The translations under genes and the position numbers were made by a program. A DNA stretch of 64,000 bases from Ancylonema sp. (Eukaryota), in the NCBI GenBank assembly GCA_050230475.1, contig JBFLGF010000062.1, forward strand, positions 1 through 64,000, read 5' to 3'. The notes beneath the pieces were generated by a model. The model worked only from the letters and a program-made list of their open reading frames with translations. It had not been told where the DNA came from and ran no database searches. Position 1 is the stretch's first letter. Every line of letters starts with the position of its first letter. Of the stretch, positions 5,819 to 54,956 are shown in pieces.

Positions 5819-12127
<6,309 letters not shown>

Positions 12128-14605
12128 CGTGGATTGGGTGGGAAGGGAAAGCCGGAAGGTAGATGACCTAGGAGGGGCGGATGGAGAGCGGGGAGTGGTT
12201 GAAGTTGAAAGGGCGGGATGGTTGATTGAGTGATTGAGAAAGGAAAGTAGGATGTCGATGGAGGAGACAAGGGAAGTGGAGTTGACATGTGAGACAATGG
12301 TTTTGTTACTTATATGGAAAGCGAAGAATTGTTGTCTTCCTCCATTTGGTTTCTTGGTTGGACGGAACGGTTTTGGGCTCCCGTACGTCTCGAGGGAGGT
12401 ACTAGTCTATGAAACAAAGGAGAGCAGATTGAATGTTTTTCGTTTTCGGAGAATATTTGGTAGTTGTTGCATGGTTGCTCTTTTCTTGTGTGACGCTTGC
12501 ACGCTTTGGCACCTAACTATGTTTCTATGAATGGAGTTCCCCGATCCGATCGAAATGTTTCCGATCCGGCGCCAATCCGGATCGGGGATCTGGATGGCCC
12601 TACTATGAGTCTATGTTTCACTTGTACTACCACATGTCGCCTCATGTTATTGCATTGAGGCCACACGTGCAAGGCCTAGTCGTTTTTCTCGAGCTCTCGA
12701 ACAAGAAATTTGTTGGCAGATGATCAATGTTAGTGACCACGGCAAGGATCCACGTTTGTAAACCATAGTTGCATGGACCGGCAAGATTGGTTTTCCGGAC
12801 TACAATCGGACTAGGTCCGGAGTTGGGACCCGGTCGAAATTTGAAAGAGTACATTTTTCTTTTAATTTTGCACGATGCACAAGCCCAAACGAAAAACAAA
12901 ATATATATTTTCCTGATTCTTTACTCTACTGGAAACCTTTCGAAATCCTGAAAGAAAAACCGAAAGTATCATACTGCCGATGGTCCGGCATTTTGGCCTA
13001 GAAGGACGGACATGACCCGGACCTTGGTCCGGAACCGTGACCTCGGAATGTACGCCTGTCCGTGTAACTATGCCGAAATGGCCAAGGGAAAACCGGAGAT
13101 GCACAACTTGAGTGCAGTTCTCCCTCGTTGTATCGACAAAGTAAAAACACGGAAATTTTCGTTATATCGAGGTGTCCATCCATGTACATTGTTTAAGGAC
13201 ACTTATGACTGGATTTCGAAATGTATGTTTATGTACCGAGGGACTTCATGAATCAAGTAAATTGATTAACAAAATATGTTGCTTCCTGGTAGTTTAAAAG
13301 ATGCTGCATTTGGATCATCACCCACTTGGTTGTGTGTTGTGTGATACAAGCAAATGAGACCAATACATGGCGGCTAGCAAAATATATTAAGTCAACTTCA
13401 CGAGGAGAGTTGGGGAAGGATTAAGAGTTGTACGAAGCAACAAAAATACTCACATATTTTGCTAGATATGGAGTACACAATGGACAATGAACGACGTGGA
13501 CTTTTTCAATTCTCAGTTTTACATTCTAGGTTTAAGGATTCCAGATCTTCTCGATACATCCATACGTTGTTCTGTGCGAGTAATTGCTTTCTACACAGTA
13601 TAGCGTTCACTTATAAATAACGTTCACTAATCAATCTCGAGTATAACTTGTCTTTCTATAAAGTGTCGGTGTGCTTATACCGACAATGGATTGAATAAAT
13701 AAATAAACAAGGCGACAAACAAACAAAACCGAAGTGGGTCGTTACATCGTGAGTCAAACGAGCTTTTCAGTCGCCGTACTGCCCGCCGAGCGACGGAAAT
13801 CCGTTTTGGAGCTTTTTGCTTTTTGCCCGAGTCAGAGATTCGTAGTACTGCGATATCCGAATCTTTTGCCTCGACTGATGCAGTGCGGCCACATGCTCCA
13901 AAACGGCAGGAAGCAACGCCATGTGGTTGGTCTAATTCAGATATCTGTCGACTTTGGATTGGCCAACATCAGATGTGGCTCACTGGAATGAATCGGAATT
14001 GCTTTCTGTACGGGTGGCAATCTCAACGACCGAGAATCATCATGTTCGGATCGCCCGTGAGTCGCGTTAGATTCAGAGTAGATCATCATGACGCAAAAGT
14101 CCGCCACAAACGTAATCACGTGTGATTCATGGTGCCATGCAGGCACCCAGTCCTAAGCCAAGCCAAGCCAAGCCAAGCCAAGCCTGACACGTGCTCGGCG
14201 CACAATGCTGAGCTGGCGTCCTGATTCAGGCGAAACCTTTCGGTCAGCGTTGTCCTGGTCTGACGTGGTTCGCATGTCCTCCAGCTGACACAAACTGCCG
14301 CCAGGATCGGCCGCAGCTACATCCGGTATCCCGTTCGATGGATTCTACGGCGTCCTTGACGAGGACAGACCCGCCACAAAAGTCTCGGTCTACTCCTGAC
14401 TCAAAAAATCGAGTTTGTCCACTGTAAACTTTTTTCCCGACGTTTTGCGAACGTCAGATTGGGGTCTTCCCATACGTATTTCCAATCGTATTTTTTTAGT
14501 CAACTGTTTGACGATATCTAGGCTGCACAGTAGTAAACCATCTATCTGAGCCTACTACAATATTCACAGTGGACACAGGTCTGAGGGAATCTGAGTGCAG
14601 CGGCC

Positions 14606-17600
14606 ATGGCTCTTCGGCTCGGCGCAATCTCAGCAGTCATATTTCTTGTCGTCTTCAGCTGCTTTACAGCGATCTCAGAGGCGACTCCGACATTCAAAAA
14701 ACATCTTATTACCAGCCTACCTGGAGCGCCGAATGCTGTCTACAAGTGACTCAGTCTGGAAATACATCGTTTTTTGAGAGGACCAACATTCGCGATAACT
14801 TATGAGCTGATGATATATCAGATGGCATCTGGGGATCATGTCATAAGTTACCTCCCATTACATTTTTTGTTGTAAAATACTTGAGCATTTTTTACGATGT
14901 TGTTGCATTGTTATAACGACATGCCAGACTGCTGCTTCTAACATAGCATGATAATATGATACTATGATACTATGATACTGATGATGCTTCTATCATGCTG
15001 AGCAGAAAGTGATTTGTTGTATGACTGACTGCATACTTATGTCTCACACTCAGTATTTTTACTGACTAGTGTGGGGTAACGGACCACCTATCGATTATAA
15101 GAACCCATTCATTAACTGAATCCTACCGTGTTGTGTGAGTGTGTAGTCAGTACTCTGGGTACATCCATCTCTCGGATGACCTCAATGGCAAGGCTCTGTT
15201 TTTCTGGCTCGTGGAATCAGTGATCGCACCAGAGACGAAGCCTCTCACACTTTGGCTTAATGGTGGTAAGTGCCCAAGATTTCCACAGAGTCAAGTCAGA
15301 TTAACGCCATCATATGTTCGTCTCAGCGAATATTGTGTAAGCCATGACAGATGGTGCATCAACTTCAGCGAATACTGTATCAGCTGCTGCATAGATCATT
15401 GCACATGTGAGAACCACTTATCTTTCAGCTATCACCATCGCACTACAGGAACTACCGTCTTTCTCCTCGTGCATCCTTCATTACGATGCTCTACACCTGC
15501 AATGGATCTCTGATTCGGAATTCGGATTCTCCACAACCTCACGTCACATGTGCTATCGATCCCATTCATCAAAAAGCTCAATCAAAGGTAGGCAACCAGT
15601 CCCAAAAAACTCTGTCCCAGTGGTTGCTTTCTGCCAGCTGTCAAAACGTGTTTCATTTCCCCCCCCTGCCCGACCAGGTCCCGGTTGCTCTTCGGTTGGC
15701 GTGGGTGCCCTAGCGGAGTTGGGGCCGTTCTTCACCAACAAGGCAGCCAATGGCCTCAATCTCAATCTGCACGCATGGAACAAAGGTCAGAACCGTTACA
15801 ACCGGCATAACCGTCATAGTCATAATGTTCATAATCGTCCTATCTGTGCGGCAGAACCGCTTTTGGAAGCTGCTGCTGTTGTGGGATTTCATCCGGTTAT
15901 TAGAGAGAACGTATGAGGGAATCTATGCTGACAGGAGTTTCGTTGATTCTGATATGTAGATTTACTTGTGATAAAACAAGGACAAATTTGCATGGTGCTC
16001 GCAAACGGCAGATTCATGTGTAGTCCCTACTCGACATCGGATTTGTTGTTCGATCCGTCAAGGAGATGTCGATCCCTCGAACACCTACTACAGAGGAGTA
16101 CCGATTTCAATTTCGGGATGCGCATGATGTGGCTTGTTGTTCCCTCTAGTTATTTTCAGATACTTGTTTTTATCCTCCTCCAGAGTGTTGGTAGGCGAAC
16201 AGTGTCCCTCATGTTGTCCGTCTCTCTTCCTTGGTTGGTGCAGAGTCGAATATTTTGTTTCTTGAGCAGCCTGTGGGCACGGGGTACTCGTACTCCAACA
16301 CATCCTCGGATTACGTCATGGGGGATAAGCAGGCTGGTGATTACTCCGATCTCCCCTCTGCCGATGGAAGAAGAACATGAAAATCAAAAAAACGAACGAA
16401 AGAATATGGTTCATGGGTCAACTTACGCACCAAGATCCTGCTTCCTGTCACCTGATTTTAGTCACAGAAACACTACAGCTGTAAGAGGGGCGGCCGCACG
16501 TCAGCATCAAGCACAAACCAGGGAAAAAAACAAGAAATAACAGAAGCTAGTCAAAAATTATAGTCTTGACATTCTGTCGTGTTCCGATCCACCCCCCTCT
16601 CCCCCCCCCCAGCAATCGACGTCCACCACTTCCTCATGCGATGGCTCAACGTGTTCTCTCACTACATTGGTCGAGACTTCTACGTGACTGGCGAGAGCTA
16701 TGGCGGCCATTACATTCCGCACATCGCCAAACAGCTGTGGGAGAACATGGACGTATCTGAGCCGCACATCCCTTTCAAGGGGTTCGCGATTGGGAATCCG
16801 TGGACGGATCCTGCCGTTGACTACCGGGGGGAGGTTGACTTTTGGTACTCGAGAGCGCTCATGTCCACGGAGACGTACACCAAACTGACGGAAAACGTGA
16901 GAATTTTATTTTGGGGTATTTTGGATCATTTTGGGAAGGATCGTTTTGGATAAGAAAATGAATCTCTTTCGTGATTTCGATTTGTCTTGGAGCACGAATT
17001 TCTTTCATGGCATTTTCTGCTTTCCAGGTTTTCGGGTCCCAAGATTCAGGCTACGGCTGCCTGAGGTGTGAGCTCATAGTTCCGTACAATTCATGTGATT
17101 GATGGTCTCTTCATTCATTGATTCACCTCCCATTCCTTCAAAAAAAAAATCAGTGTGGTGTTGTGGACTACTGGGAAGATATCCCTGGCTCCATCTGCCT
17201 CGACTATCTCACGAGGGCGTATACGGAAATGGTGAGAGGGGAGGAAGCACCGAAAACTAGAGCACTAAGCAATAGCGTAGCGTAGCGTATCGAATTGTAT
17301 GGCGTGGTATCAGATCTCATCGAATCGGATTCTGATACGAATGTATGACGTCGGATCGTACGGTGTCGGGTTGGTGTGGATGAGATTGTATGATCCATGA
17401 TCAATGATCAATAATCAATGATGATATTGTTTTGACGATTGTACATGAGGGAGTATTAATGAAAGGGTTTCCAGAACGGTGTATCATTTTTTCTTCTTTG
17501 TTTTACTGCAGTAAGCAAGCAGTGTGCAAAGTTTTCATTATTTGGTCTGAATTCTTCCCCCTCTGCTGTCTGATTCAGGGCGACGTCAACATCTACGACG

Positions 17601-19217
17601 TGTACGTGGACGTGTGTCATCCCAATTCGGTGACACCCTCCGTGAAAGCGCTACTCGACATCAAATACAAAAATGTAAGAAGAGGCAAACCACACCCACT
17701 CCCCCTCCCACTCCCACTCCGACTACCACTGCCAACTGAAAATCGAAAAAAAAAGAGATGATGTTGTTGTTCATTCCAAATTCATTTCTGCCATTTTTCC
17801 CATATTTCTGCCATTTTTACTCGTTTCCACCATACCTCATCATGCCTCCAATCCCTACCGCCCCCTCCCCTGTCACTAAGCCTTCCCCATCCTCCCCCCA
17901 CCCCCCCCCAGCTCCACCAGCGCCTGTCCGCCCGCTCCCCCTCCCCAGTCACCCCCTCCCCAGTCACCCCCTCCCCAGTTACCACCTCCCTCCCCTGGGA
18001 GTACGACCCGTGTGCTCACTGGCAGGTGGAGGTGTATCTGAACAAGAAGGAGGTGCAGAGAGCGCTGCATGCCAACACCACGGGGCTGCCGTGGGAGTGG
18101 ACGGAGTGCTCGTGAGTAGAGGGGAAGGAAAAGGAGGGAGAGAGGGGGGAAGTGGGTGCAGACGTGTATGTAGGTGGGGTGGAGGAAGTATGAGCACATG
18201 GGTTCATTTTTTGCGGTTTACAGAGGTGATGTACGGGAGTAGCAGGGCATGTTTCGATGCCATGCATCAAACATTCATCATGGGCATTTCTCATACATCC
18301 AAAATAATTTCGGGTTCATAAAAATTGAAGGGGCAACATTGAAGGGGACGTAAAGGTTTGATCATGAGTATCCGGCGCAGAAAGAAGACACATCTTCATG
18401 TAGAATACTAATACAGAATGATGTCTATACAAGATATCCGCTGCAAAGTATGCGTTTCTCTACCCCCTCACCTCCATCTCCTGTGTAATTTTCACATCAT
18501 TTTCATCTCAACCTTCCCCCCCCCCCCCCTTCAGCACCGTTCTCCAATACTCCGACTCCGACTCCCTTGCTTCCGTCCTCCCCCTCTACCACGAGCTCCT
18601 TCAGACCCCCCTCCAGATCCTCATTTTCTCGGGTGACGTGGACAGCGCGATACCGACCATGGGGACGAGGAGGTGGATCCTGCAGCTCGAAGGGGAGGGG
18701 CATCTGAGGAAGAGCAAGGCGTGGGAGGCGTGGTATCTGGAGGAGCAGGTGGGGGTTATGATTATTCTTGGGTTTTCCCTCCCTCTTCTTTTTTAATTTT
18801 TTAATTTTTTAATAATAATAATAATAATATATAATAAATGAAGTAGAATGACATCAGTTATCTTCCATTCCTTCCACGCCATTGTTTTTTGTACTTCTTC
18901 CTATCGGTATCCCCCCCTCATGTTTCCGAACTTCCATTCCCATCCCCGGTTTGCAGGTTGGCGGTTACTCGGAAGAGTACAACAACGGCAACTTCCGATT
19001 CGTGACCATCCGTAACGCGGGCCATATGGTCCCCTACATGCAACCCGCACGTGCGCTGCAAATGTACAAAGCGTTTCTCGCGAACACCTCCATGCCGACG
19101 CAACATGCGCCAATCAACGCGAGACGCAATAATGATAATGGCGGAGGGGAGGAGGGGGAGGAGGAGGAGGAGGAGGAGGAGGAGGAGAAGGTGGAAACTG
19201 TTTTGCTCGCGATGTAG
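14606..19217 (+). CDS. serine carboxypeptidase-like protein (S10), copy 2. 10 exons, approx. 14606-14745, 15147-15265, 15678-15785, 16244-16336, 16613-16896, 17154-17231, 17579-17674, 17912-18111, 18535-18748, 18957-19217
   Basis: Signal exon MALRLGAISAVIFLVVFSCFTAISEA...SLPGAP, then QYSGY, WLNGGPGCSS, FLEQPVGTGYS, GESYGGHYIP, SGDVDSAIP, IRNAGHMVP; the catalytic triad is intact. Confidence 0.93.
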
Positions 19218-38699: not shown

Positions 38700-40330
38700 G
38701 TATTTGATTGCACGGCGGTATGCCCGGTCTTTTTGCTGTTGGTTTGGAGTTGGTATGTATTGATGTGTTTTGAGTAATGTCATGGTAGCATTTCCATCCC
38801 AAATGTCAACTTTGAGGTCGTTAGGTAGTGGTGTATCTTGGTGGTGGCTGAGGTAGTATGATGGTGATACTTGAAGAGTTGGAGATGTCTCGAAGTAATA
38901 ACATGGTGTTTTCTCCCCCAGTGTCTCAATCTCATGGTTGTCTGTAGTGATTTCGGGTAGTGGACATCGGCTACATCCATCCGCGTTGGAGTTGGCTATG
39001 CCAGGGCGATGAAGAGTGCCCAGAGTGCCAATTTACCCGTAAGTTTTGTAGTAGTCATTATCCATTTGAGTGGGGCATGGTCGGTGATCAAGATAAATGG
39101 TTTTCCAAACAAAAATTGTCTGAAATGTTGTGCTCCCAAATGACTGCAAGACACTCGCCATGGAAACTACCGTAGTTTTTCTCTGCGTTGTTGCACCTGC
39201 GGCTGGCGAATGCGACTGCATATTCTTGTCCTTCTTTGTCAACTTGACTGAGTACCGCACCTAATCCATGAGCACTCCAATGTGTAGCCAGAATGTATGG
39301 TAAGTTGGTATCAGGTCGTCTAAGGACAGGTTCATAACAGAGCTTGGTTTTTAGTTCTTTGAATGCAGTATCTTGAGAGTCGCCCCACTGCCATTTGACA
39401 TCACCTTTGAGAAGCTCATTGAGTGGTAAAGCAATTTTGGAGAAATGTGGTACAAATTTTCGGTAGTAGGTAAATAGTCCCAGAGCTGCCCGTAGTTGGT
39501 GAATATCCTTGGGTGCAGGCATATCCTAGATTGCTCGGGTTTTCTCATCTTGTGGTGCAATGCCTTTACCGGAGATCTTATGCCCTAAGAAATCCATTTC
39601 ATCTGCGAAAAATAAACATTTTCGTGGACGACATTTGAGTTTGAATTGTCGCAGGCGATGAAACACTTGACGTAGATGTTGAATGTGGTATTCGTGCCGC
39701 TCCAGTTACTGATGTCATCAAGATAGCACCGTGAGTTGCAAAGACCAGCTAGGATGCGATCCATAGTGCGTTAGAAGAATGGAGGTGCGTTTTTCAATCC
39801 ATATGGTACGACATTCCATTCATATAGTTGGCGGTCTGCTCCCCAAAATGCAGTTTTACATTTTTTTTCCTCAGCGATTGGTATTTGGTGATATCCTTGC
39901 CGGAGATCCAGTTTGGTAAAGATCTAAGCATCCTTCATATTGAGAAAAATGTCCTCGATGCGTGGTAATGTTTGATTGTTGATAGGGCGGTAATCTCCAC
40001 ATTGACGATAGTCTGTGTAGTTGCCTTCTTCATCCTTTTTGCGAACAACGACTGTGGCGGAAGCGTAATGGTTGCTATCGCTTTTTCGGATCATTCCAAG
40101 TTCCATAAGTTTTTGACAATTTCCGCGTACAAATCCCCATTCCGCCTATTTCAGACAGGCGGTGTGAGTTTTGGAAATTTGGTTGTGTAGTTTGGAGTGG
40201 TATTTCCACAAGTTTATTGCTAGAAGGTAGTAGTTTTTCTAAAGAAAATGCGAAAACATCTTTGTTTTCCTTGAGTAGTTCAATGACTTGTAGCTTTTGT
40301 TCCTTTGTCAAGTTGTTTCCTATTTTCCAG
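38700..40330 (-). pseudogene. Ty3/gypsy reverse transcriptase-RNase H of element A, with stops, frameshifts and deletions
   Basis: YRQCGDYRPIN, LPRIEDIF, TKLDLRQGYHQI, KTAFWG, PYGLKNAP, CYLDDI, FLGH, ALGLFTYYRKFVPHFS, GLGAVLSQ, AFASR, EKNY, ITDH, NADGCSR. Confidence 0.92.
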
Positions 40331-40614
40331 GTAATAGGTTCAGCTTCTGTGGTAGGATTGTTGTCGTGTGGTTATGGAATGACATTGCCATATGTAACCG
40401 TTGTAGATTGGTAACTTGTCTCAAACAATAGTGCCAGAGTCATGGAGATAGCATCGTTCCGAAGTTGTGGTTCGTTGTCTGGTACAATATGTGAATGGTC
40501 ATGGTTTGGGTAAAATGTAGAGGTGTGGTTATCATAGTGGAGTGTATGATAAGCTTGTGGTATTTGGTATTTCCCACCCCCCCTATCATTGGTTGAGAGG
40601 GTGGGGTCCGATTC

Positions 40615-42039
40615 CTATATGAGGTTATATGATGGTATCGCATGAGTTGCCACTATCATGCCCCTTAACCATTTTTCCATGTTGCGATCCATAGTGATGC
40701 CCAAAATAACTTTGCGTTGGTCTTCTCTGATGCCTGGTGCACATGTGTCACCGTTTTCAAACCCCATGAGTCTCTTCCGTTCCCATAAGTTTGCTTCTTC
40801 CCAACGCTGTGTGTCGACGTTGTAAAGCATGCCTGGTCCTGGTTCTTTCCAACGTTGAAAAGTGAACTGGTAGCTGTCTGGGTAAGACACCAGAGTAGGT
40901 CGTGCACGGCGAGGTCGTCCAGCTTTGTTGACTGATGTAAATGGTGGTTGGTCATCGGTCAAGACTTTGTTGGGTCTATGGTGTGGTTCCAAAATTTTGT
41001 GAAGAGGTAGTAGGTTGGGTTCATCTGGTATAGCGAGTTCCAGAATGTTTGGTGCTAGCAAGTTGGTCCATAAACAGCGGACTCTGTGTGCCGTGCTACC
41101 AAAGCTGCATGCATCGACCACTGCTGGAAAGCCTAGAAAAGACTTGATGAGAGTAGTGGTATCCTTGACTTCTTTGATGAGGTCACCGAATGGGTATGTG
41201 TTTTCAAGTACGAATACTGGTGGAATTTTTTGTACTTTAATCAGATGGTTGAGGTAGCGAATCAAGTGGAAAAAGAAAGGAAATATACGGTCGTAATATC
41301 CTTTGCCTTGTCCTACCTTGCTGATCATCTGGCATTCCCATCCTGCGAATATGAAGTCTATTGGTCCTCGTTGTGCAATGAGTCTGTCCAAATCGTCGTT
41401 GGAAATTTTTGAAATGTCATGATCGAGACGTGTGTCAAACCCTTTGATTGCACTCGTGGGTAGTAGTCCGGGATAACGAGTTTGTATCTTTGGTAAGAAA
41501 GCTCTGGTTATATCTTGAGCATCTTCATCGATATCTGTGTTGGTGTAAGTGCCAATCTTCTTGCCTTGTTCGACAGTCATTATGGCGTCCCTGCAACTCA
41601 TGCCTCCAAATGGTTCCCAAACATGTAGTCCATTTTGCAGTGCTTTGGGGTCAAAACGTGCGGTGTAATCCGGTGTTATAGGAACCGCATCACGAATCGG
41701 TATACCTTTCCATTCAGTCCATGGTGGTAATGGTGATGTTCTGGCTTTGTCTATGGCATTGCGCAAATATGAAGCATTGGTAATGCGCAAAGTGTTGAGG
41801 CGGTTGGTTGCATGGTGTTCGTTAACTTGGTTCAGACATTTCGCAACCATGTTCAATTGTGGTCGACTGGCTTGACGAATATTTGTATGTTTGGTGGTGG
41901 CGAGATAGACCATGGTATTGGCTTCCCATTCTTGCAAGTTTGGTTCATATGGTTGTTCTTGAGATGCATCAGATGAGTATTCTGGTTCAGAGTACAAACC
42001 ATTGCTGGCAATGTTGAATTCAAATGCGGTGAGTACATC
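40615..42039 (-). CDS. C5-cytosine DNA methyltransferase domain within the element A polyprotein (between protease and RT)
   Basis: Motif I VWEPFGG, HDISKI (III), motif IV IFAGWECQ (catalytic Cys), motif VI FVLENT, motif VIII AHRVRCLWTN, IX ERKRLMGF, X ILGITMD; open over about 470 codons. Confidence 0.9.
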   Translation of the reverse strand, partial: DVLTAFEFNIASNGLYSEPEYSSDASQEQPYEPNLQEWEANTMVYLATTKHTNIRQASRPQLNMVAKCLNQVNEHHATNRLNTLRITNASYLRNAIDKARTSPLPPWTEWKGIPIRDAVPITPDYTARFDPKALQNGLHVWEPFGGMSCRDAIMTVEQGKKIGTYTNTDIDEDAQDITRAFLPKIQTRYPGLLPTSAIKGFDTRLDHDISKISNDDLDRLIAQRGPIDFIFAGWECQMISKVGQGKGYYDRIFPFFFHLIRYLNHLIKVQKIPPVFVLENTYPFGDLIKEVKDTTTLIKSFLGFPAVVDACSFGSTAHRVRCLWTNLLAPNILELAIPDEPNLLPLHKILEPHHRPNKVLTDDQPPFTSVNKAGRPRRARPTLVSYPDSYQFTFQRWKEPGPGMLYNVDTQRWEEANLWERKRLMGFENGDTCAPGIREDQRKVILGITMDRNMEKWLRGMIVATHAIPSYNLI

Positions 42040-43699
42040 TGTCATGACGCTAGAGATAGCTAAGGCGAAACCCCTCTAGATTGATCAAGAACCCCTCTAG
42101 ATTAATACTCTGCTATAGCGAGAGTATTGCATATAACGATTTTCTAGAACTAGTACTTTACAAGAAAAATAGTGAAGTATGAAATTCGTACGACTCGAAA
42201 ATAACGTGTGGCGTATTTTCCGAAGTCTAGAATCCAGCAGTCTTCAACAAATAGGTGCGTGTCGATTTTGTTAAAATCGCAAGTCTCTTTAGACTTGTCG
42301 ATAATCCCGGCGATTAAATCCAACCGTAGAACTAGAGGAATATCTCGCGCCGCTTTCATCGGAGCGCCGAGATTAATTGTAATTTTCTAGAAGCCAGCCT
42401 CTCGCTATCTTCGACAGTTTAACTCTAGTTAACTCTGCCGGTTAGCACCGCGCAACAGCTTTGTGATATAAGTCAAATTGTACTTTCAGATCTGGCAGCT
42501 TCCGCTGTCAGATTGTGTTGTTAAGAAGTCCCTTCCAACAATATTTTTGTGTTATCTGAATCCTTTGCAATTCTGTGAACATTGCATCCCTTCGTTTACG
42601 CGACTACGCAACGTGCTCGTCTTCCGACTCAGCCTGACATCCGACAGCCAGTCGGTAAGATTGCAAATCATTCGTTGCAATCTGTGTGTGTGTGTATTTG
42701 ATCTGATTCATCTAAATCTGTTGCTGACGCTCTTTCTAAGCCAGATTGTTAATCGACTGTAACTTCTTACATCGATTCGCTGACGCTCTGTCTGAGCCAG
42801 CAAGCGTGTGTGTGTGTTAAACATCTGTCGATTTGCTCGCGTTCGCTCCGAAGCGGAAATTTCATTTGTGTGTGTGTGTTTGTTGTCGCTCGCTCCGAGC
42901 CAGCATCTGTTGTTTACACCTGTCTGCTGACGCTCTTTCTGAGCCAGCATCTTTTATCGACGCGCCGTCGATACTTTGCTTTCGCACCGAAAGTAACTCT
43001 TACGGCTGTTAACCTTGATAGTCTGCTCCAGACTACCAGACTATCTTGTTTGCTTTATAGTATTTTCACACTATAAACCATCTGTTAGGCCCTCGGCGTT
43101 ACGTAGTGAATTTCACCAGACCGCTGAGACGTGTGATAGATATGATATTGATATCTCAGCAGAGACTCAATCTGCAGTACTACTTACTTCAATCCGACCG
43201 CGGAAGACCTTGAATTATCAACAATTTAAAGTCTGAAAAGGTAAATTGCCTTAAAAAAAAATTGTTTTTTTTTGGCAACTTTTCTTCTACTATTTTGTAT
43301 TCGATGTGCTCGCAAGAGTAGTGCATGCAGTGGTCACGAGATAGTAGAGGGAGATTAACCAAACTGGAGATAACTAAATCTGCTGAAATTATCGATCGAC
43401 CAGCTGCACCAGCTATCGACAAAAACTGTCCACGATCACCGGACATTGATATAATTAATATCGAATCATCAGCTGCACCAGTTGTTGATACTTATATTCA
43501 TACTGATATTGACAATTCAGCTGCACCAACTGTCAATATCTCGGCATTCCATCTGCCTAGTACCCTTCTCGATAACGATTCTACAACCCAAATATAATTA
43601 ATATTTGAACCCAACAAATTGACATGTTCTACATCTGAACCAGAACAATCTTTGGAACGCCTACCTACAGGCTCCATTAACTTGAAACTTGTTTTGATT

Positions 43700-46694
43700 A
43701 TTGACACAGACGACCACATCGTCGACACCACAACATCTGTGGCTGGACCATCGACCACTGTTCTCACTACAACGCCACCAAGCGCTGCAACAACATCCAT
43801 TTATCGACACAAGATAGATAAAAGGTGGGACAGACTCTACCATGGCCAACCCAACGCCACTACCGACATATACTAGAGAAACTGGTGTCAAACAAGATGA
43901 GTTCATCGATAGTTTGAGACAGTTAGACCGAACCCAACAACGCGCACAGCGTATGGGGCATGTACAGTGGGACTGAGTACTTGCAGCAGGTCAGTATATG
44001 AAAGGAGAAGCTCATCGAGAATGGCAACAGTTTGTACGTGACAACCGTGGTACTACTACTACGGAAGATATTCGAGATATGTACCGTGAGCATAATTCCA
44101 ATGTCGCATATTATCGTCTGCAAGGTAGACAGGATGGACAACATGCACCGATCAAACCCACATTATCGGCAGCAAAACCAACATAACTGGACTTGTTCAT
44201 CACTACCATCAAAAATCGTTTTCGAACTTCAGCTGCAGAATTTGTCACTTAGATCGAAACATTTTCAGCACGACCCAACGACTGTGTTGCAACCACATTT
44301 GCACGCTCTTTAACGACCCAACAACAATTGTTCAAGAGGCAGGAGCCATGACAGAAGAACAACTGGCTAGGAGGTATATACCACATATTCCTCTACCACT
44401 ACAGTCTTATATCGACGACTGGCATTTTCGAGAATCAGAGGAAGGGTACTACAAGAATCCACCGGATCCTCCTATTACCAAGAAGGAAATTATGGAGAAA
44501 GCTAACAAGGCTGAATTACTACGTATGAAACAAGACGCGGAGAACCGCGCAACCGGGATCACCAGATCTCCTAAACTACCTTCATACACTCCATGTACTC
44601 CATACAATGCTCCTAAACCAACAGGCGTATTGACACCACGACAGGATAACAGCATGGAATGCTATAAGTGTCATCAGACCGGACACCTTTCGCGTGACTG
44701 TCCTGCACCAAGGAAACAAAACAACTTTCAGTCATCAGGTTACCAATCTGATAAAATTTCCAAAACCAACCAATCCTCAGGATCATAGTTTAAGGGAGGT
44801 GCGTACCGTACTGAAAACATACAAACTTTCAAACCACGACCTCGCCAGTTTGATGCAAAACAGTACACCGCTGATGCATTCTGTGAATACTGCAAAGGTA
44901 AACACCACACCCGAGACCAATGTCAGAAACTTGCCAAGGTACAGAACTTCCTAACTCTCAATACACCACCCAGTGCAGATACCCAACCCAAACAAATCGT
45001 GGAAGACTCTGAATCCTGAGACGCAGACAAGTTACCTGGCTATGCAAGTAGACGACTTGGCACGCCAACGAGAATTCGAAAACATGTCGCACCAAACAAC
45101 GGACTCTGAGATCGCAGAAAAGGCACATGACAACGCGGTTGCACTTGTCAGCTCCATGCAAGAACCTGCAGCCCAATACACTACCAATCAGGATTTCACC
45201 ACTACTTCACCACGCAACTCTCAGGACACCAAATATGCTATCCAACATAAGGAGAAGAAAGCCACAGCAGACCAATCTGCGAGAGACAGTGAATCTGCAC
45301 GTGTCGGCCCACGCCGTTCCATTCAATTCGGCTCCCAACCTGAGGAGGCCGTCTTGCTTACTTTACCACCGGTCAAAGCGGTAGCAGGTGATTATGAGGA
45401 TAAATATCCCCTTACACCTGGCTCCACGCGCATTGACCCTCCACCTGAGTTCACAACGGACTATGGGGAAATACAAGAAACTGCGGATACACCTCACCAA
45501 TCAGTAGTACGCAAACGATTGGAAATCGAGGACAAAATCAAGCGCAAATGCATTCCTGAGGCACTTGAACAAGCAAAGTTTATAGATTTCAACCAACCCA
45601 TCTCACCTCGCAGCACTGTGTGTCAAACATTCTTTCGCGCTGCTGAGTTTGAAGATGCACATACTCCTATGGAATTGGATACCTCAACAATTATATCCTT
45701 AGACATTTCAACCAAACCTATATCACCTCAACATTCGCTACCTACTTCTGACACTCAATTCCTTTCAAACATTCTTTTTGATACAGACCTTTCTCGGGCT
45801 GACAACGACACCTTCGAACCAAATGAGCTACACGAGCTCACTAAGGACGACTTTCGAAACCGATACCACGCTATGATCTCGCAACAGAAAATTTCTCGAG
45901 CAGTCGTCTTCAAAGCAGCCAAAATAAAGGCAGAGGTAACGATTACACGAAGAATATCATAACTCATCAACGAACAAAAATCGGTGCTTCTCTGCAAGGA
46001 TGTGCAAGCAGATGTCGACATCGCCGCAGCTCGGGAGGAGGAAAAGAGCAAATGGATTCAGCAGTATGATCTTCTAGTGGATACACTCCATTCCAAATTG
46101 GAAGACAAGATGCAGGACCTAGTCGTTCTTCACGCAACGTAACTCCAAGAAGTTCGCTAGGAAGCTGCTCGTCTGGAACAGAGGCTACAAATGGAGATTG
46201 GCAAGAACGTACTGCGCGGCGAACATTCAGCACCAATTCCCAATTCCCCACTTACCAGCTGTGCACCCTCCACATCCATTAGTTCTGCACCTTCTCCTGC
46301 TGCCAGCACCCCTACCCAACCAGGGGGTGATACCATGGACACCTCGGAGGCCATAAAACCTCCTACAACTGCTGCGTGCAAACGGGAGGCGTATTCCACT
46401 CACCCCATTTTGATGGATAGTCGGCGGTCTACACCTACAACTCCCAACTCTTCATCCCAATTACCCAATGCACAAGACCCGGGACAATCCATTGTCAAGG
46501 CGATGGAGAAGGAAGCTGTGAAGAACAAACCACTCGGTGCCTACGCACACCTGCGCGACCCAAGAGACAAAACCGACGTTGCTCAACGTCTGGCACGCAC
46601 GAATACCAATGTGTCAGATTTTACCTTCCGTCAACCATTCATTCGACCGGCTATGGCTGTTAGGACCCTCGCTACAATCACTAGGGCTCCCTAG
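43700..46694 (+). pseudogene. gag-like ORF of element B plus a long uncharacterised extension, interrupted by stops
   Basis: CCHC knuckle CYKCHQTGHLSRDC (~44660), a second knuckle FCEYCKGKHHTRDQC (~44880), then consecutive ORF fragments 44973-45962 and 46191-46694. Confidence 0.75.
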
Positions 46695-47110
46695 CGAGGT
46701 CCCCACACTTAGCGCTAGAGCGCTACTAGCTCAGTTTTCCCAATAGCGAGTTCTGTCCCTATAGAGTGGGAGTTGTGTCCCTAGCGGCCGCCTGGCCCCT
46801 AGAGAGTATTCTGGTGTGTCCTTCGCTACGGCAGTAGTGCCGTTAGCCAGACTTGATGTGTCCTTATCATATTAGTGTGAGTTATCCCACTTGTAGTCAT
46901 GGTTCAGACTTCAGCCAGTTCCTATATCTAGTCGAGATAGGAATGCCTTTAGAGCATTCCTATCAACTCTTTTGCACTCCCGATTATTATCACCACCATT
47001 TCCCATCGGTCATACAATCTCATTCATTCGGCATTTCGCCATCTTTCCGCTTGGTGCATATCGCAACTTGCTTGCTAGGGACGCCTTTTGCATCCGTCCC
47101 TAACATAACA

Positions 47111-48442
47111 ATGGCGCATCTCCTCAGCATGGGCGCCATCCCGAAGGCTTTCTCCGGAGCAGACCGCAGCAAATTAGCAGATTCCATCTACGCGCCAGAC
47201 ATCCTGCATTACGGAGACGCCCGAGAACATCAGGCGAAATGACCAAAATTGTCTTCGTGAGGCACACCTCAAGTTGGCACATGACTATCAACCAATCCCA
47301 CCATCTATCAAATGGTGTGGTCCTACATTTTAAGGTGCATATGAACTACCTCGTACCATCATTTCCACGCAACCAGCTTCTGAGGCTCGTGGCCTGCACA
47401 TCTACATCCCCTTCGGCAACTTGGAGATTGTGGAGATATGTCTGGAGGGAGGCTCCATTGTTTCCAACGTCACGCCGCAGACGGACTGCATCCACACCAA
47501 AAACCGCTACCTTCAAAAGCTGCGACAACTTCAACTCCGATTTCCAGACCAGCTGCCGAACTCTGCGATCGAGCACTGTGATGAAATTCTGTCTACCAGC
47601 GTCACCGACACGACAACATAGTAGATGGACGCACTTTTCCGTCAAAAAGGCCCCTTCGACGTAGTCGGTGGTAACTATCACACAGAGGTGGATCGCACCT
47701 ACAACCCTCTACGTGGCGGTCAAGACCATCGCCTCGCTCCACTCCTCGTTGTCATCAAATGGATGCACTACAGCGCGCGACTCGCACAATTCTACCCGGT
47801 GCACATTTTCTACACCCACATCGGCACACCCGAGTACCCTCCTTGGGTGGACGCCCTGTACCACGTGGCGCGTGCATTCCTTGGCAACGCTGCAAATCTC
47901 CAACCACTCCAGTTCCAAGGCCACGTACATCGCCCAACCCAGGTGTGGACCAACTGCATCACACCACGCGAGCTGGAACTTGCGCAACCCCACAAGATAT
48001 GGCAGACCCGGGAGCCTCTGCAGAACCTTCTGCAACCGGGGCACACAGCTCAGATCTTGACACTTCCCGACCCGGTGAACCATCACCGCATGGGCAACCG
48101 CTTGGCTATTTTTCCCACTCTGAGTCCTTACCTCCGGACAACCAACTATACGTTGCGCTCGGATGGACGACCCGGCATCGGTATGCTGTTCGATGCACCA
48201 TCTCAGTAGTACGTGCCACCTTCTCCATTCGAGATCGAGCAAGCTCTTGGACGACCTGTGGGATACACAGCACATGGCCGCATCACCGACGCCATGCGCG
48301 CTGCTCATCTGGGCCACATGATGGACGGACGACTCATCATGTTCCTGGAGGAAATCCTCCAGGGCACCAAACCATAGGAATCACCCCTCACCTCGGAACA
48401 CAGGTATTTACCACCCTCGACTCTGGGGGGGAGGGACACTAG
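47111..48442 (+). pseudogene. divergent, catalytically dead DNMT-like ORF of element B
   Basis: Colinear with the element A DNMT: GLHIYIPFGN/GLHVWEPFGG, RFPDQLPNSAI/RYPGLLPTSAI, QKGPFDVVGG/QRGPIDFIFAG, AFLG...HRPTQVWTN/SFLG...HRVRCLWTN, RPGIGMLFD/EPGPGMLYN, LGHMMD/LGITMD; a few stops. Confidence 0.8.
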
Positions 48443-49260
48443 ATCCTCTGGTCAACAATTTTCAACCAATCCTGTCAAACCACACGGACGGAACAAATCC
48501 AAATCCAAAGTCCAAAGTCAAAACCAAACTACGGGCACACCCACTACAGTCAAAAGTCAACAAAAAAATATAGGACCTAACATGGTATCGAAACCCGGTC
48601 CACGACCACGGTCCTCAAATTCAGCTAAACCAACCGAATTAAGGCCTAACAACTCAACGGTCAAACTTGATCTTTCTGGTCCACGACATTCTCGTCTCCG
48701 GTCCGTACCTAGTCAACAAAGTAACACTCGGAATCAGTCTACAACCATCCCGGACCTACCAAACATCACTTGGATATCAAACAAACCAAGACGACAATCT
48801 CAACCAACATCTCATGCTGCCTCTTACCACACGAGGAAACACCATAAAAAACAGCATGAAGATTTTTTTGTCATCAACCACACTTTTCAATACCAACCAT
48901 CGGAACCTACTTCAGTACCACCTGTACAACTACATTTTTCTTTATCACCATATTCTACCTCGCGATCCACACTCTCGGATTCTCTCAGCATACCCGATAG
49001 TCTACCCGACTTGCTAGAAGTACCATCTTTTCCTGATTATGAACATACCGTTTATACATATTTGGATGATTCTAACATTCCTACCTATACTCAGGGATGT
49101 ACACTTGACCGTGATGCATTGTTCGCATTATTAAGCACAAGGTGACCTACCACTGCTGATCATCCCAGTTCTGCAACTCAACCACGGCATACTTTTGTCA
49201 CATTCTTATACAATCTCGTCTGCTGCTGTTTCCCAGCTCCTTCACAAGCGTTCCACACCT

Positions 49261-49272
49261 GGGGGGGGGGAG
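49261..49272 (+). promoter_or_regulatory. polypurine tract of element B
   Basis: GGGGGGGGGGAG immediately before the TG of repeat B1. Confidence 0.8.
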
Positions 49273-50988
49273 TGAGAGCAGCCGGACCACCGAGTCCACC
49301 TGAGACCCTTCGATCACCTACAAACATCATCTATACCAACCCAGTCGACATCATCACTACACCACCGCGTGCATTACCACATGCATCATTATGAGAAACA
49401 TCCGGGAACAAAGGGAACAAAGTATGAAGAATATAATTTCGGGCGGCCGACTCCAAACAACACGTCACCTGTCATGACGCTAGAGATCGCTACGGCGAAA
49501 CCCCTCTAGATTGATCACGAACCCTTCTGGATTACTACTCTGCTATAACGATAGTATTGCATATAACGATTTTCTAGAACTAGTACTTTACAAGAAAAAT
49601 AGTGAAGTATGAAATTTGTACGACTCGAAAATAACGCGTGGCGTATTTTCCGAAGTCTAGAATCCAACAGTCTTCAACAAATAGCTGCGTGTCAATTTTG
49701 TTAAAATCACAAGTCTCTTTCGACTTGTCGATAATCCCGGCGATTAAATCCACGTAGAACTAGAGGAAATATCTCGCGCCGTTGTCATCGGAGCGCCGAG
49801 ATTAATTGTAATGTTCTAGAAGCCAGCCTGTCGCTATCTTCGGCAGTTTAACTCTAGTTAACTCTGCCGGTTAGCACCGCGCAACAACTTTGTGATAAAA
49901 GACAATTTGTACTTTCAGATCTGCCAGCTTCAGCTGTCAGATTGCGCTGTTAAGAAATCCCTTCCAACAATCTTATGTGTTATCTGAATCCTTGCAATTC
50001 TGTGAATATTGCATCCCTTCGCTTACGCGACTTCGCAACGTCTCGTTTCCGTCTCCTGACATCCGTCAGTAGCCAGACGGTAAGTTTGCAAATCATTATT
50101 TGCAATCTGTGTGTGTGTGTATTTGATCTGATTCATTTGAATGTGTTGCTGACGCTCTTTTTAAGCCAGCTTGTTAATCGACTGTAATATCTTACATCGA
50201 TTCGCTGACTCTCTCTCTCTAAGCCAACAAGCGTGCGTGTGTGTGTAAAGCATCTGTCGATTTGCCCGCGTTCGCTCCGAACCGGCAATTTCATTTGTGT
50301 GTGTGTGTGTGTTTGATGTCGCTCGCTCCGAGCCAGCATTTGTTGTTAACACCTGTCTGTTGACGCTCTTTATGAGCCAACATCTTTTATCGACGCGCCA
50401 TCGATACTTTGCTTTCGCACCGAAAGTAACTCTTACGGATGCTAACCTTGATAGTCTGTACCAGACTATCTTGATTTCTTCATAGTGTTTTCACAGACTT
50501 TTGTACTATAAACCATATGTTAGCTCGCCTTCGGCGTTAAGTAGTGAATTTCACCAGACCGCTGAGACGTGTGATAAATATAATATTGATATCTCACCAC
50601 AGACTCAATCTGCAATACTACTTAGTGAGAGCAGCCGGACCACCAAGTCCACCTGAGACCCTTCGATCACCTACGAACATCATCGATATCAACCCAGTCG
50701 ATATCATCACTACACCACCGCGTGCACTACCACATGCATCATTATGAGAAACATCCGGGAACAAATGGAACAAAGTATGAAGAATATAATTCCGGGCGGC
50801 CGACTCCAAACAACACGTCACATCATCGTCCTCAGAAGAATGTCATAAAGCAAGATTGGGTTCCTGCATGAAAGTATCTACTGAAGTATATGTCACTCTT
50901 GTCGTCATGTATTGACATTAAATACTTGCAGCATGTGGTATACTGTATCAAACTGGTATCGATTCTTTCTTGTGTCCTCCGAGATCCC

Positions 50989-52421
50989 TGTCATGCCGCT
51001 AGAGATCGTTAGAAAGCAAAGTCTTTTTAATTGTCGATCCGCTTGAAAAATAGCAATTTTGGTAATTGTCGATTTTTAGTCGTTATGTTAGTCGTTATAT
51101 TGAACTCTGTCGTTATATGAGTTTCAATCAGTCAGACGTTTGATTTGATAAAAAATTTATACTCAGTCAATCTAGAAAAATCGATGTACCACTTTTTAGA
51201 TTTTAATTCGGAGTATTCGAGTTAGTAGATTCCCAGTGCGCGAGCTTTATTTCAGTCAGCCAGCCTGGCGTTTGAACCGCCGCACGTGTTAAATCTATAA
51301 CTCTAGACTAGACAGTCACGATTGGTTGTCTACTCCGATATTTTTTTTCAACCATAGATCAAGATAAGGATCTAGATTACCGCGCGTGTGAAACGGCGCG
51401 TCGATTGTACTAAAGCCTAAGTCGCTTTCTAAACTGCCAGCTTCCGCTGTCAGTTTACGCTGTTTGAATCACAACAACTCTTTGCAATCGCCATCTTTGC
51501 AATCTTTGTGAATTCGTGTATTCTGCAATCGTCAACAATCGTTATCAAGTGTGCCGTTTCGCCATTGATACTTTGTCTCTGATTTTTGCAAACTTCGCGT
51601 CGCTCCATCCAGCCGTAAGTTCTGCGAAATTGCCTGTTTGCTTGTGCGTCGCATCTCAAGTAGTACAAAAATTCGTGTGCCGTTTTGCATACGCATCGTG
51701 TGAAATTCTGCCGCAGTCATAATTATCGTTACCCTTGCAAAATTTTGACCCTTGCAAGTCGTTGATTGTCAGCCGTTTCGCTGACTTCAGAAATCGTTAC
51801 AATTAGCTGCACCGTTTCGTGCGAGCTCAGTCAAACAATTCACCCTTTGAATTGCCTGCACCCGTTCCAGATCTAGTGAATCGTTTTATTCACGACAACG
51901 TTTGATTCCCGAAACCAATAGTGAGTGCGCACCCCGTCGCAACTAACTATCATTCATTATGCACCCTTGTATAAATTCTATAGCTATTTGCCTTGCGTTC
52001 TTTTTAATCGTAGCTGTCACCTGTTGTGAAGTACGATAACCTGCAACGCTTGATTAACCATAGTGTTTTTTATAGAATTCCCACCACTAAGCGTTGAGTG
52101 CATCTCAGATTTCGGCGAGTAGTAGCTACGGCAAACTTCGTTGATAAGTCATATACCGTGCTTGAATTACATTCTTGTGTGGTCAGTAGGGATTCAACCT
52201 ACACCAAACTACTCTAGTGAGATCCAGATGATGACCGTAGGCCCAATCCTGAATCTCCTCATCCAGACACGCAGCCAAGTCATCAACCAACAACCGTCAC
52301 TTTCATCGACGCAGAAAAATATAGAAAGTCAAGTTTTGCAGATTTTTCCAAAATCTGTCGATATCTTTATTTTTGAGAGATTTCGTCGACAGGTTGTCTG
52401 CCGACTCCATCTCGCACGTCA
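50989..52421 (+). mobile_element. element C: solo A+B terminal repeat of a related family; TSD TCCC
   Basis: TGTCATGCCGCTAGAGAT...GCACGTCA with TCCC on both sides; internal A/B junction ACTACTCT-AGTGAGA (~52217). Removing it restores the host frame RVDW-DLGGHKK. Confidence 0.88.
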
Positions 52422-53700
52422 TCCCAGTCCACCCGGTAATGAAATTCTTGAATCCAAGGGTCAGTGATTCCTCCGATGGGTGCGAAGAATGTGGTGCCAA
52501 GAAGTACGTCGAATTTGTCAGATGGTGAGAGATGTTGTTTGGTCTGTACATAAGTCTGGTTATGTCCTTCTCCGATTGTAATAGTACATTTCTTTTTGGT
52601 TGTGCCCAATGATTGATGACTTTTGCCTTTAGAAATAATATATTCAATGCCTTGTTCCAAGTCAGTTGATGTGAGACCCAATTGTTTGGTAAACCTGGAC
52701 CCAATCATGACATTCTTTGCTCCTAAATCATAGATGAGAATTGTTGGTGGTTCCCCTCCAATGGTGATGATCCCTTTAGAATTGTCAGTTTTTGGTACAT
52801 GCCAATTGGTTGCCAGTCGTGCGTCACATGGTATTACTCGTGGTTTGTTGGTTTGTGGTCCTGCAACAGATAGAGCAGGGTTTGGGTTTGGCATAGGTGC
52901 CTGTGGTGGATATGTATGAGGTGGTGGTACATCCCCATGTGGTGAATCCAGTAGTAAATTTCTGCGATGAGGACAATTTGACATAGTGTGTCCTTTTTGT
53001 CCACAAAAAAAACATTGTACCTCTCGCATGGTAGTATCATAATGGTGGTTGTGGTCCTGGTCCCGATAGTCGTATTCTGGTAGTGTCGTACTTCTTGTTG
53101 GAAGAAGTTCACATTCTGTCTCGTGGTCTGAAGTTCTTCTGACCTCGTTGTTGTTGTGAGGCGTAGCAGTCCAATTGAGTGATGTAGATGTGCTCATTCG
53201 CTCGATGATTGTTTGCACCACTCGTTCTAGCTGGGTGTCAAAAATGTGGATGGCGAGGTCTGGTGTAGTTTCGTCCATTGGCATCGCTGAGTAGGAGACT
53301 GCGTTGATTTCAGCAGTAGCGGTGTCGATGATGTCGTTGATGTTTCGTGTAACCATGTTGTCTTTCCATTGTTGCTCATCTGTGTGTAGCTGTACTGCGA
53401 GATGATTTGGAAACACTTGCTCCCATTCCTGTAGTCGATACTTGCATTAAATTTGAACATGGTCCATGATTGTTTCCTGTACCTTTGGTGCAAAGGCTTG
53501 GATGACCGTAGTGTGGGTCTCAATCTGTTCCGCTATCTGTCCAAGTCTGAAGTATCGGAAGTCGGAACTGATGTTGGTTGCTTTCTCACTCATGTCTTTC
53601 TATTAGTATATATCATTGAGTTTGGATTCTGCTACCGAAGCTTGTTGTTGAAGAAGTGTATTACTCGTTGCTTGGTTGACAGCACTGATCATTGAAGAAA
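52422..53700 (-). pseudogene. gag (zinc knuckle)-aspartic protease region of element A
   Basis: ORF 52367-53416: CFFCGQKGHTMSNC, ILIYDLGAKNVMIG, FDVLLGTTF. Confidence 0.85.
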
Positions 53701-53781
53701 CTGGTAAAATAAAAAATGGTCAAATTCTGGTAATAAAATGACTTTCTGCGATAAAAAGTCTTCCGCTGGTGTGATTGAAGT

Positions 53782-54956
53782 TGGGTTGCAAAAAGAGTCT
53801 CTGCTGAGAATTAGGTGTTCCGCTAGTTCTATCACACTTTCTCGTGCGTGAATGTGTGGAACACTACTTGACGCCGAGGGCGAGTCGACAATTACTATCA
53901 ACAATAGAAAGTCTAGACAGGATGATTGATGGTAAACAGAATATTCTGGTGTCGAATATTAGGGTCGACAACCGAAAGGTAAACTTCCGAGTAGAAAGTT
54001 CGGCTGTCAAACGGTGCGGTGAGAGATGATAATTGATGGATGTGATGTGCTGGTTCAGTTAGAACGTCAGCAAGTGGTTGCGCGTCGTTATCGTACTAAC
54101 TCAGTACGAGCGTAAGTGAATCGACGTAAATCGACAAGAGTAGTTCTCGCTCAGTAAGAGCGTCAGCAACGTGGTATATGATTATGGCTGGCTCCGTAAG
54201 AGCGTCAGCACAAAGATGTGATGGTAAACAACAAGTTTACACGCTGGCTCAGTGAGAGCGTCAGCGAAACAACACAAGTAATGACAGGAAGTTGAAGTTG
54301 CGAAGGTCACTTCGGTCAACTTACAGAATTCGTCGACGGTAGTCGCACGAGAAATCGTAGACAAGACACGAAGATAAGGGCAAGAACTAGCGTCAGCCAC
54401 GAGTTGCAAAATTCAGATAACATAATTGACAAGATTTCTGAGAAAATATCTTGAAAGTTTCTTGACGGCGCAATCTGACAGCGGAAGCTGGCGGATCTGT
54501 ACAATGAAAAATGTATGTATGCTACGATCGTCAAATCGTAAAACTAACTAGAGTTAATCGACATGGTTAATCGACAGGCTATACTCTAGAAAGTTCTATT
54601 TAATCTTGGCGCTACAAATATAGACGTCAAGTATTCTACGGCTGGATTTTATCGCCGAGATAATATCGACAAGTCAGAAAATATCATCGTCGATAACAAA
54701 ATTGCGCAGAGCGCTGAAAAGTCGACACGCACTCTTAATTGTACGACTCCTGGATATTACAGTCGGAAAATTTGCCACGCGTTATTTTCGAGTTTACAAA
54801 AAGTTGTTAGATTTTGCGGAGTACTGATTCTAACTTCACACCAAATCATGAAATCGCTATATCGAATCTGTTTGCTTATAACAAGGTATTTTACTAGAAA
54901 GGACTGGATATTATTACAAAGGGATTTTACCCTTAACAATCTCTAGCGTCATGACA
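53782..54956 (-). repeat. 5' terminal repeat (A part only) of element A
   Basis: Shares the start TGTCATGACGCTAGAGAT, GCCAGCTTCCGCTGTCAGATTG, GCTGACGCTCT motifs and the end CTCAGCAGAGACTC...ACTTCAATC with A1 of element B. Confidence 0.85.

Follow-up and report, generated by a model that had tools for sequence, protein, structure and literature searches.

Catalytically inactive relatives of the Dnmt3-type DNA methyltransferases (DNMTs) are familiar as mammalian host genes, among which DNMT3L and DNMT3B3 partner DNMT3A and DNMT3B as non-enzymatic subunits kept by selection; in DNMT3L the target-recognition half has been lost and an ADD domain is present. Among mobile elements, BARE2 is a non-autonomous long terminal repeat (LTR) retrotransposon that keeps gag and depends on BARE1 as its helper, and we know of no gag-keeping non-autonomous element that retains a selected pseudoenzyme domain. 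The present study concerns a candidate for that combination in a 64,000-nucleotide stretch of Ancylonema sp. DNA (assembly GCA_050230475.1, contig JBFLGF010000062.1, positions 1 to 64,000; hereafter the window), in which two related retrotransposons are nested, element B on the forward strand being inserted into element A on the minus strand, and in which both elements carry a DNMT-like region.

To our knowledge, nobody knows why retrotransposons carry working cytosine methyltransferases. Active DNMTs of retrotransposons have been described, and the closest of these systems is KnitGypsy-Dnmt3 of Klebsormidium nitens, a Gypsy-type element with DIRS-like A-coding-B-A-B repeats and a Dnmt3-type domain within its polyprotein, for which purifying selection between copies and conservation of the key catalytic residues of the domain were reported (de Mendoza et al. 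2018, PMC5890265). The main text of that paper, so far as accessible, holds no occurrence of 'inactive', 'non-autonomous' or 'Dnmt3L'; a streptophyte Gypsy-DNMT3 is named in a 2026 preprint (10.64898/2026.05.21.726589), in the accessible part of which 'inactive' does not occur either. Full-text literature searches, supplements excluded, did not turn up a dead DNMT described for any non-autonomous element. The analysis below indicates, with considerable confidence, that element B holds a decayed copy of a Dnmt3-like domain from a high-copy Gypsy-type family whose copy here has no reverse transcriptase (RT), and that this domain is catalytically dead and yet has been under selection.

Results

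A Dnmt3-derived fold without catalytic motifs

When the DNMT of element A was compared with the window by tblastn, one other match was obtained, in a forward frame of element B at 47205-48368, with 97 of 400 identities (24%) and E 2e-26; the alignment contains few short gaps and no frameshift over ~390 codons. With reference to Table 1, the catalytic motifs of the active enzyme are replaced along this alignment. In pairwise and multiple alignment alike, AGWECQ of motif IV in element A is paired with GNYHTE in element B, Thr standing in the place of Cys, while VLENT of motif VI is paired with IFYTH and HRVR of motif VIII with HRPT. A first-pass annotation made from the sequence had stated that all three motifs are replaced, and this is borne out with an offset of one residue in the pairing at motif IV. 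The replacements extend to motif I, where FGG reads FGN and the second Gly is lost, and to the acidic block S/T-D-I-D of motif II, which reads N-V-T-P. In this fold S-adenosylmethionine (SAM) is held by the second motif I glycine together with the acidic residues in motif II.

The protein obtained by reading through the stops of element B gave no match to PF00145 or to any other Pfam methyltransferase model at E values up to 10, and no other Pfam domain was recognised in it. Its AlphaFold2 (AF2) model, built on an alignment of 51 sequences, reached a predicted local distance difference test score (pLDDT) of 81.4 and a predicted template modelling score (pTM) of 0.78, and the top Foldseek matches of this model were the catalytic domains of DNMT3A and DNMT3B (E ~2e-11, target-normalised TM up to 0.73); DNMT3L and DNMT3B3 are named in the titles of solved complexes among the matches. 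The suspected kinship with DNMTs holds, then, at the level of the predicted fold, and this region of element B is a Dnmt3-derived fold without the catalytic and SAM-binding motifs.

The same annotation had described a full-length, stand-alone DNMT homolog with its own ATG at 47111. The homology stands; the open gene and its start do not. The frame that runs from ATG 47111 to the stop at 48442 carries 8 internal stops and differs from the frame of homology, and the ATG itself belongs to ATGGC, the sequence duplicated on either side of a 453-bp insertion. In the homologous frame the first ATG lies at 47625, past motifs I-III, none occurring before residue 172. This frame is interrupted by the stops given in Table 1 and by a further TAG at 47175, upstream of the homology, and it ends with the TAG at 48375-48377 in the context ...TAG GAA TC..., which is also the context of the stop of element A. 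The DNMT-like stretch of this copy of element B is a pseudogene, a decayed copy. A changed genetic code in which TAA and TAG are read as Gln was considered and rejected, since the frames of both elements end with TAG in the same context, and it is also ruled out by the ordinary sense codons found at the internal stops of element B in other copies; translation table 6 opens long frames everywhere and offers no discrimination.

Family-level selection on the DNMT frame

Other copies were examined in DNA sequencing runs of one organism and of metagenomes, with contigs aligned at 80% likeness. Short contigs in the tens of thousands cover both elements, which makes each of the two families high-copy; in run X1, 36-69 contigs per listed place were B-type versus 12-38 A-type, a rough measure, since contig counts are not copy numbers. 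Position 47175 reads TGG in nearly all of the depth of other copies, and 47619 and 47622 read GAG and CAG in 63008/63312 and 60919/63312 of the depth of X1, respectively, with X2-X4 alike, these depths being sums over short contigs and not single copies. This copy has therefore acquired its stops by mutation, for the most part C to T, and the differences between the repeats of element B (8.4% and 4%) allow time enough for such decay.

Selection was assessed over 47310-47960 from differences shared by at least 35% of the depth, as a rough form of the ratio of non-synonymous to synonymous substitution rates (dN/dS) and not as a codon-model estimate; the counts refer to the best-supported 40 of 73 places. 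Synonymous differences number 28, versus ~29% expected by chance (binomial p 7e-8), and the 12 non-synonymous ones include two that are this copy's own stops. Thirty of the differences fall on third codon positions, where a composition-only model expects 12.3 and 0 of 400,000 simulations reach 30. In X1 alone, third positions make up 29 of the 38 places shown (of 43), with p 5e-6 even if the five unseen ones are all at other positions. The bias is present on either side of the TAG TAG pair (17/20 before it, 13/18 after it), and it is stronger among differences found in less than 90% of the depth (23/27) than among the near-private ones (7/13), a contrast to be expected if post-insertion decay contributes to the near-private set.

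Purifying selection appears, from this pattern of differences, to have kept the dead DNMT domain at family level. The proposal of the first-pass annotation, that the dead enzyme was maintained rather than left to drift, gains support at that level from the synonymous excess and from the kept replacements described below; as for an open frame under constraint, four of the five stop places are sense codons elsewhere in the family.

An old dead clade and a better-kept second half

Fourteen B-family protein fragments (62-144 amino acids, 73-90% identical) were recovered from metagenome assemblies, all of them within residues 170-422. Wherever they cover the replaced motifs they keep the replacements, with GGNYHTE/NDNYHTE in 2/2, HIFYTH in 3/3 and HVHRPTQVWTN in 1/1, and restoration of Cys, ENV or RxR was not seen in the fragments covering these motifs.

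A profile-free search, run exhaustively over 1.84 billion representatives, returned 73 matches, most of which are Dnmt3-like with G-W-[E/P]-C-Q, ENV/ENT and HRxR, many of them within long Gypsy- or DIRS-like polyproteins. The Cys of motif IV is absent also from P0016, P0019, P0030 and P0052, which are 31-37% identical to element B and share its derived N188, W/Y189, T/Q191, E192 and R/K195 (GN[WY]HTE-type); P0019 additionally shares Y234 and T276, and the changed motifs I and II of element B recur in P0016 and P0061. Both the family fragments and these four lineages carry the replacements, in agreement with the earlier claim that catalysis was lost before this insertion took place. A tree of the motif IV-VIII block groups element B in one clade with two B-family fragments and P0019 (Shimodaira-Hasegawa-like approximate likelihood ratio test, SH-aLRT, 99) on a long stem beside A-like sequences, although long-branch effects are possible and the other dead fragments, being too short, were left out. 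The dead forms that could be placed thereby appear as one clade.

The retention of residues is uneven along the domain. Among columns strongly conserved in the active set (at least 70%, n=83), element B keeps 17/49 up to residue 276 and 21/34 from residue 279 (Fisher p 0.024). Judging by motif order and position, the half after motif VIII should comprise the DNA-reading part together with motifs IX/X.

No homologue of similar length was found in a collection of 5.8 billion proteins, and a single-ORF (open reading frame) query of Joint Genome Institute (JGI) metagenome contigs gave no relative. Copies of both families were observed in runs X3-X7, which are labelled metagenome or glacier metagenome, so the host or a close relative lives in such habitats; in run X4, 369 contigs lie over the wide region, 25 of these being at least 99% alike, and 28 contigs over the narrow region.

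Architecture of element B and its missing polymerase

Element B is bounded on both flanks by the 5-bp repeat ACATC (42035-42039 and 50820-50824). An empty-site-like joint, 42034 to 50820, was found in two X1 contigs and is weak evidence because its short side measures only 21 nucleotides. The repeats combine a DIRS-like, circularly permuted layout with Gypsy-type genes, and the junction of repeats B1 and A2, between …CACGTCAC and CTGTCATG…, is the apparent opening point of the element.

The loss of RT, RNase H and integrase from element B, as first described, was confirmed, and the lack of signal extends to protease. Pfam searches of ORFs of at least 45 amino acids found the zinc knuckle only, tblastx of element B against element A gave matches confined to the DNMT, the zinc knuckle and the repeats, and tblastn of 27 polyproteins of at least 600 amino acids matched the DNMT region only; this lack of polymerase genes is judged on one fully examined copy. 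A YLDD in the ORF following the terminal TAG had hinted at an RT remnant, which was rejected since none of the 27 polyproteins gave an RT match there by tblastn.

The first 26 nucleotides of element B are 92% identical to the 5' terminus of element A (54956), and conservation extends to the sequence immediately internal to the 5' repeat, which fits the use of A-type machinery by element B. Such machinery would mobilise element B in trans, and on sequence grounds it is plausible that element A is the actual helper.

The DNMT frames of both elements end with TAG followed by GAATC and, ~9 nucleotides further on, by a C-rich/G-rich hairpin (40573-40617 on the minus strand in element A, 48375-48435 on the forward strand in element B). 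The frame after this TAG stays open for 255 codons in element B and for 80 codons in element A, where the decayed RT then begins, and the TAG with its hairpin resembles a stop-codon readthrough signal between a Gag-protease-DNMT part and an RT part. The hairpins predicted after the TAG of element A and of element B (the latter at ~48385-48435) were no more stable than those of shuffled sequences (z -1.3 and -0.05, respectively).

Element A, the upstream insertion and the rest of the window

The DNMT ORF of element A matches PF00145 (E 1.1e-5, 25.5 bits versus a cut-off of 22), and its closest solved relatives are DNMT3B, DNMT3A and DNMT3C (E 4e-5). Its apparent ATG, at 42045, falls within the repeat of element B, so the insertion of element B truncates this ORF at its 5' end. 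The database polyprotein P0026 maps protease (52798-52424 by tblastn), DNMT, RT and RNase H in the order of element A, spanning both sides of element B. An integrase of element A was not found in the window, either by Pfam on ORFs or by tblastn with the 27 polyproteins. The DNMT ORF is open for 473 codons beside a broken RT and RNase H. Among the 12 near-fixed differences listed between it and other copies, 3 are at third codon positions, so this copy appears to be undergoing neutral decay, and that its frame is open may be a matter of chance. Related database polyproteins show two kinds of domain order, RT-RNase H-DNMT (P0024, P0025, P0027, P0067) and protease-DNMT-RT (P0026, P0028, P0042), and two domain orders were also reported for DIRS elements of Symbiodinium (PMC5890265).

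The 453-bp insertion upstream of the DNMT-like region shows weak terminal inverted similarity and has no second copy in the window. The joint from 46652 to 47111 was found in 3, 2, 1 and 5 contigs of runs X1-X4, so other copies lack this insertion. Over 46399-47092 the summed contig depth is ~10 times that of element B, and the insertion probably represents a solo LTR or else a small non-autonomous element, in either case from a very abundant family.

Elsewhere in the window, successive Pfam matches of exon size indicate a tandem pair of serine carboxypeptidase (Peptidase_S10) genes with introns on the forward strand at 7341-19214. Other inverted repeats, whose arms are 73-84% identical (22556-23961/29989-31333, 3105-3353/37991-38241 and 20366-20774/55266-55640) probably represent other transposon families.

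Table 1. Coordinates of elements A and B and of the DNMT-like region in the window; motif conservation is counted over the other database matches covering each column.
Feature	Position	Strand	Evidence or remark
Element B, Gypsy-type, RT-less, with split direct repeats, within element A	42040..50819	+	repeat layout
Dnmt3-like pseudoenzyme region, frame with codon starts divisible by 3	47205..48377	+	tblastn, AF2, Foldseek
Motif I remnant IPFGNLE (active relatives EPFGG..)	47406..47426	+	second Gly kept in 35/39 other matches
Motif IV remnant GGNYHTE, Thr for catalytic Cys	47667..47687	+	Cys kept in 46/51 other matches
Motif VI remnant IFYTH, Tyr for Glu of ENV	47805..47819	+	Glu kept in 52/55 other matches
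Motif VIII remnant HRPT, Thr for second Arg	47928..47939	+	Arg kept in 55/58 other matches
In-frame TAA; CAA in three X1 contigs whose loose ends cover the position	47331..47333	+	
In-frame TAG TAG; GAG CAG in nearly all other copies	47619..47624	+	contig depth
In-frame TAG; Q in 7/7 spanning family fragments	48207..48209	+	protein fragments
Repeat A1, 5' terminal repeat of element B	42036..43186	+	1042/1137 aligned bases (91.6%) match A2
Gag-like ORF of element B with CCHC zinc knuckle	44129..44785	+	Pfam PF00098, E 2e-6
Nearly open frame between Gag and DNMT-like region, no recognisable domain	44955..46652	+	ORF lists; no Pfam match
453-bp insertion, TG...CA ends, private to this copy	46658..47110	.	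5-bp duplication ATGGC at 46653-46657 and 47111-47115
255-codon open frame after the terminal TAG, DNMT frame, no recognisable domain	48378..49142	+	ORF list, Pfam
G10 purine run directly before B1	49261-49270	+	read from sequence
Repeat B1	49271..49468	+	190/198 bases match B2 (96%)
Repeat A2	49466..50624	+	repeat search
Repeat B2, completing the A-coding-B-A-B layout	50624..50821	+	repeat search
Element A RT and RNase H, interrupted by stops	38820..40371	-	Pfam RVT_1 and RT_RNaseH fragments; tblastn with polyproteins
Element A Dnmt3-type DNMT ORF, motifs I, IV, VI and VIII intact	40618..42036	-	Pfam, alignment
Element A Gag-protease ORF, beyond element B	52370..53446	-	Pfam zf-CCHC and Asp_protease_2
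Element A 5' terminal repeat, collinear with repeat A1 of element B	53755..54956 (inner end approximate)	-	sequence comparison

Discussion

Overall, the explanation towards which we lean is that the B family carries a selected pseudoenzyme domain, likely a non-catalytic module that binds DNA or a partner. All of the motifs are lost and purifying selection is nevertheless indicated, so the domain is likely a binding module rather than an enzyme. In intact members it would most likely form the C-terminal end of a longer polyprotein on the Gag side, the layout of element B being taken to mirror the Gag-protease-DNMT part of element A because the DNMT frames of both end with TAG in the context noted above. 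As to mechanism, we tentatively favour a pairing of the dead domain with an active Dnmt3-like domain of the helper polyprotein, in the manner of DNMT3L and DNMT3B3, which could tie the particles of element B to the enzymes of the helper or alter the methylation targets of the latter. A transposon-borne anti- or co-methyltransferase, in which the dead Dnmt3 paralogue, kept under selection and still in possession of its DNA-reading half, might block, redirect or recruit methylation by the helper or the host, is by analogy a possible but somewhat doubtful extension.

Several observations weigh against a selected binding domain of this kind. None of the listed runs containing the stretch is an RNA run. 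This copy of element B is, on account of its stops, incapable of making the DNMT-like protein. The upstream junction does not fit smoothly: with the 453-bp insertion removed, the ORF at 46161-46652 continues into the frame of 47111 and not into the DNMT frame, small insertions occur in other copies at 47220-47221, and the 43-amino-acid translation of 47111-47239 in the frame of ATG 47111 was not matched to P0051, an A-type protein, by BLASTP. For the same stretch, the near-fixed differences at 47164 and 47176 would be synonymous in the frame of ATG 47111, and the AF2 model is disordered before residue 37-42. In the protein collection, residues 1-172 had 0 matching fragments, even though the corresponding DNA has a comparable summed depth, and among the fragments with internal ends two stop at ...LQPL and seven begin at a GTG just downstream, so many copies are broken and some of the breaks may be shared. 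The Gag proteins of the two elements share only the zinc knuckle, hence element A itself may not be the helper. The depths, moreover, are summed over short contigs, and the selection test samples 40 of 73 differing places.

The evidence bears differently on the other explanations of the same domain. Second to the pairing, and itself rather unlikely, comes a role of the domain as a DNA-binding shield or competitor, riding with the Gag and complementary DNA of element B, occupying sites on the DNA of element B and excluding the methyltransferase of helper or host; such a role would agree with the better retention of active-enzyme residues in the second half, with the high confidence at which the half after motif VIII was modelled, and with B-type sequence being, by a rough measure, no less abundant than A-type across the runs, but the conserved residues could instead serve the fold or a subunit interface, and contig counts are not copy numbers. 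That the domain is a neutral relic of an autonomous ancestor, hitch-hiking without function in a non-autonomous element, is improbable. The four stops inside the homology of this copy, the one upstream and the insertion at its 5' edge are what such a relic would display, as are the many short, stop-bounded family fragments and the want of N-terminal ones; drift, however, is at odds with the ratio of 28 synonymous to 12 non-synonymous differences, two of the 12 being this copy's own stops, with the derived residues that lineages of 31-37% identity have in common where the active site used to be, and with the lack of any frameshift against element A over ~390 codons despite 76% protein divergence.

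An enzyme with altered chemistry, in which the block N-[W/Y]-[H/N]-[T/Q]-E would act as a novel site of catalysis or base flipping, is quite improbable. The conservation of the replacement residues across the dead lineages is in its favour. Amino-methyltransferases carry an N/D-P-P-Y/W motif, to which the Asn and aromatic residue of element B are only loosely similar, and the idea has against it that element B, P0016 and P0061 carry replacements for both the second motif I Gly and the acidic motif II residues and that no Pfam methyltransferase model matches element B. The constraint might also stem from an overlapping frame, either the forward ORF at 47675-48442 (255 codons) or the antisense ORF at 47709-48380, both of which are long; this is highly improbable, as the 30 third-position differences lie at first or second positions of the other two forward frames and, by coordinate arithmetic, at first positions of the antisense ORF, and the DNMT homology is confined to the DNMT frame.

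Under the reading that we prefer, a selected binding domain, the B family dropped its polymerase genes along with the chemistry of methyl transfer and yet kept the protein, which suggests a job beyond methyl transfer, such as the binding of DNA or of an active relative. The domain could then serve as a natural separation-of-function variant for probing the roles of transposon DNMTs. If it acts as partner or competitor, a pseudoenzyme of the DNMT3L kind would have arisen independently, here from conflict among mobile elements, and the two families would form an active/dead DNMT pair evolving between such elements, analogous to DNMT3A/DNMT3L and invented by transposons. Since the domain of element B is missed by Pfam, surveys that count PF00145 matches overlook domains of this kind.

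In comparison with known systems, element A fits the description of KnitGypsy-Dnmt3, and element B has the same repeat layout and a selected Dnmt3 domain, the comparison being made by description only; it differs in being without the catalytic and SAM-binding residues and without RT, RNase H, integrase and protease. Its likeness to elements of the BARE2 type lies in the terminal repeats, the Gag-like ORF, the lack of polymerase genes, the autonomous-like 5' terminus and the high copy number. With DNMT3L and DNMT3B3 it has in common a Dnmt3-derived fold that is without catalytic residues and apparently under selection. Unlike DNMT3L, element B keeps best the very half that DNMT3L has lost, has no other recognised domain, finds its best structural matches in DNMT3A/3B chains, and is borne by a transposon rather than being a host gene.

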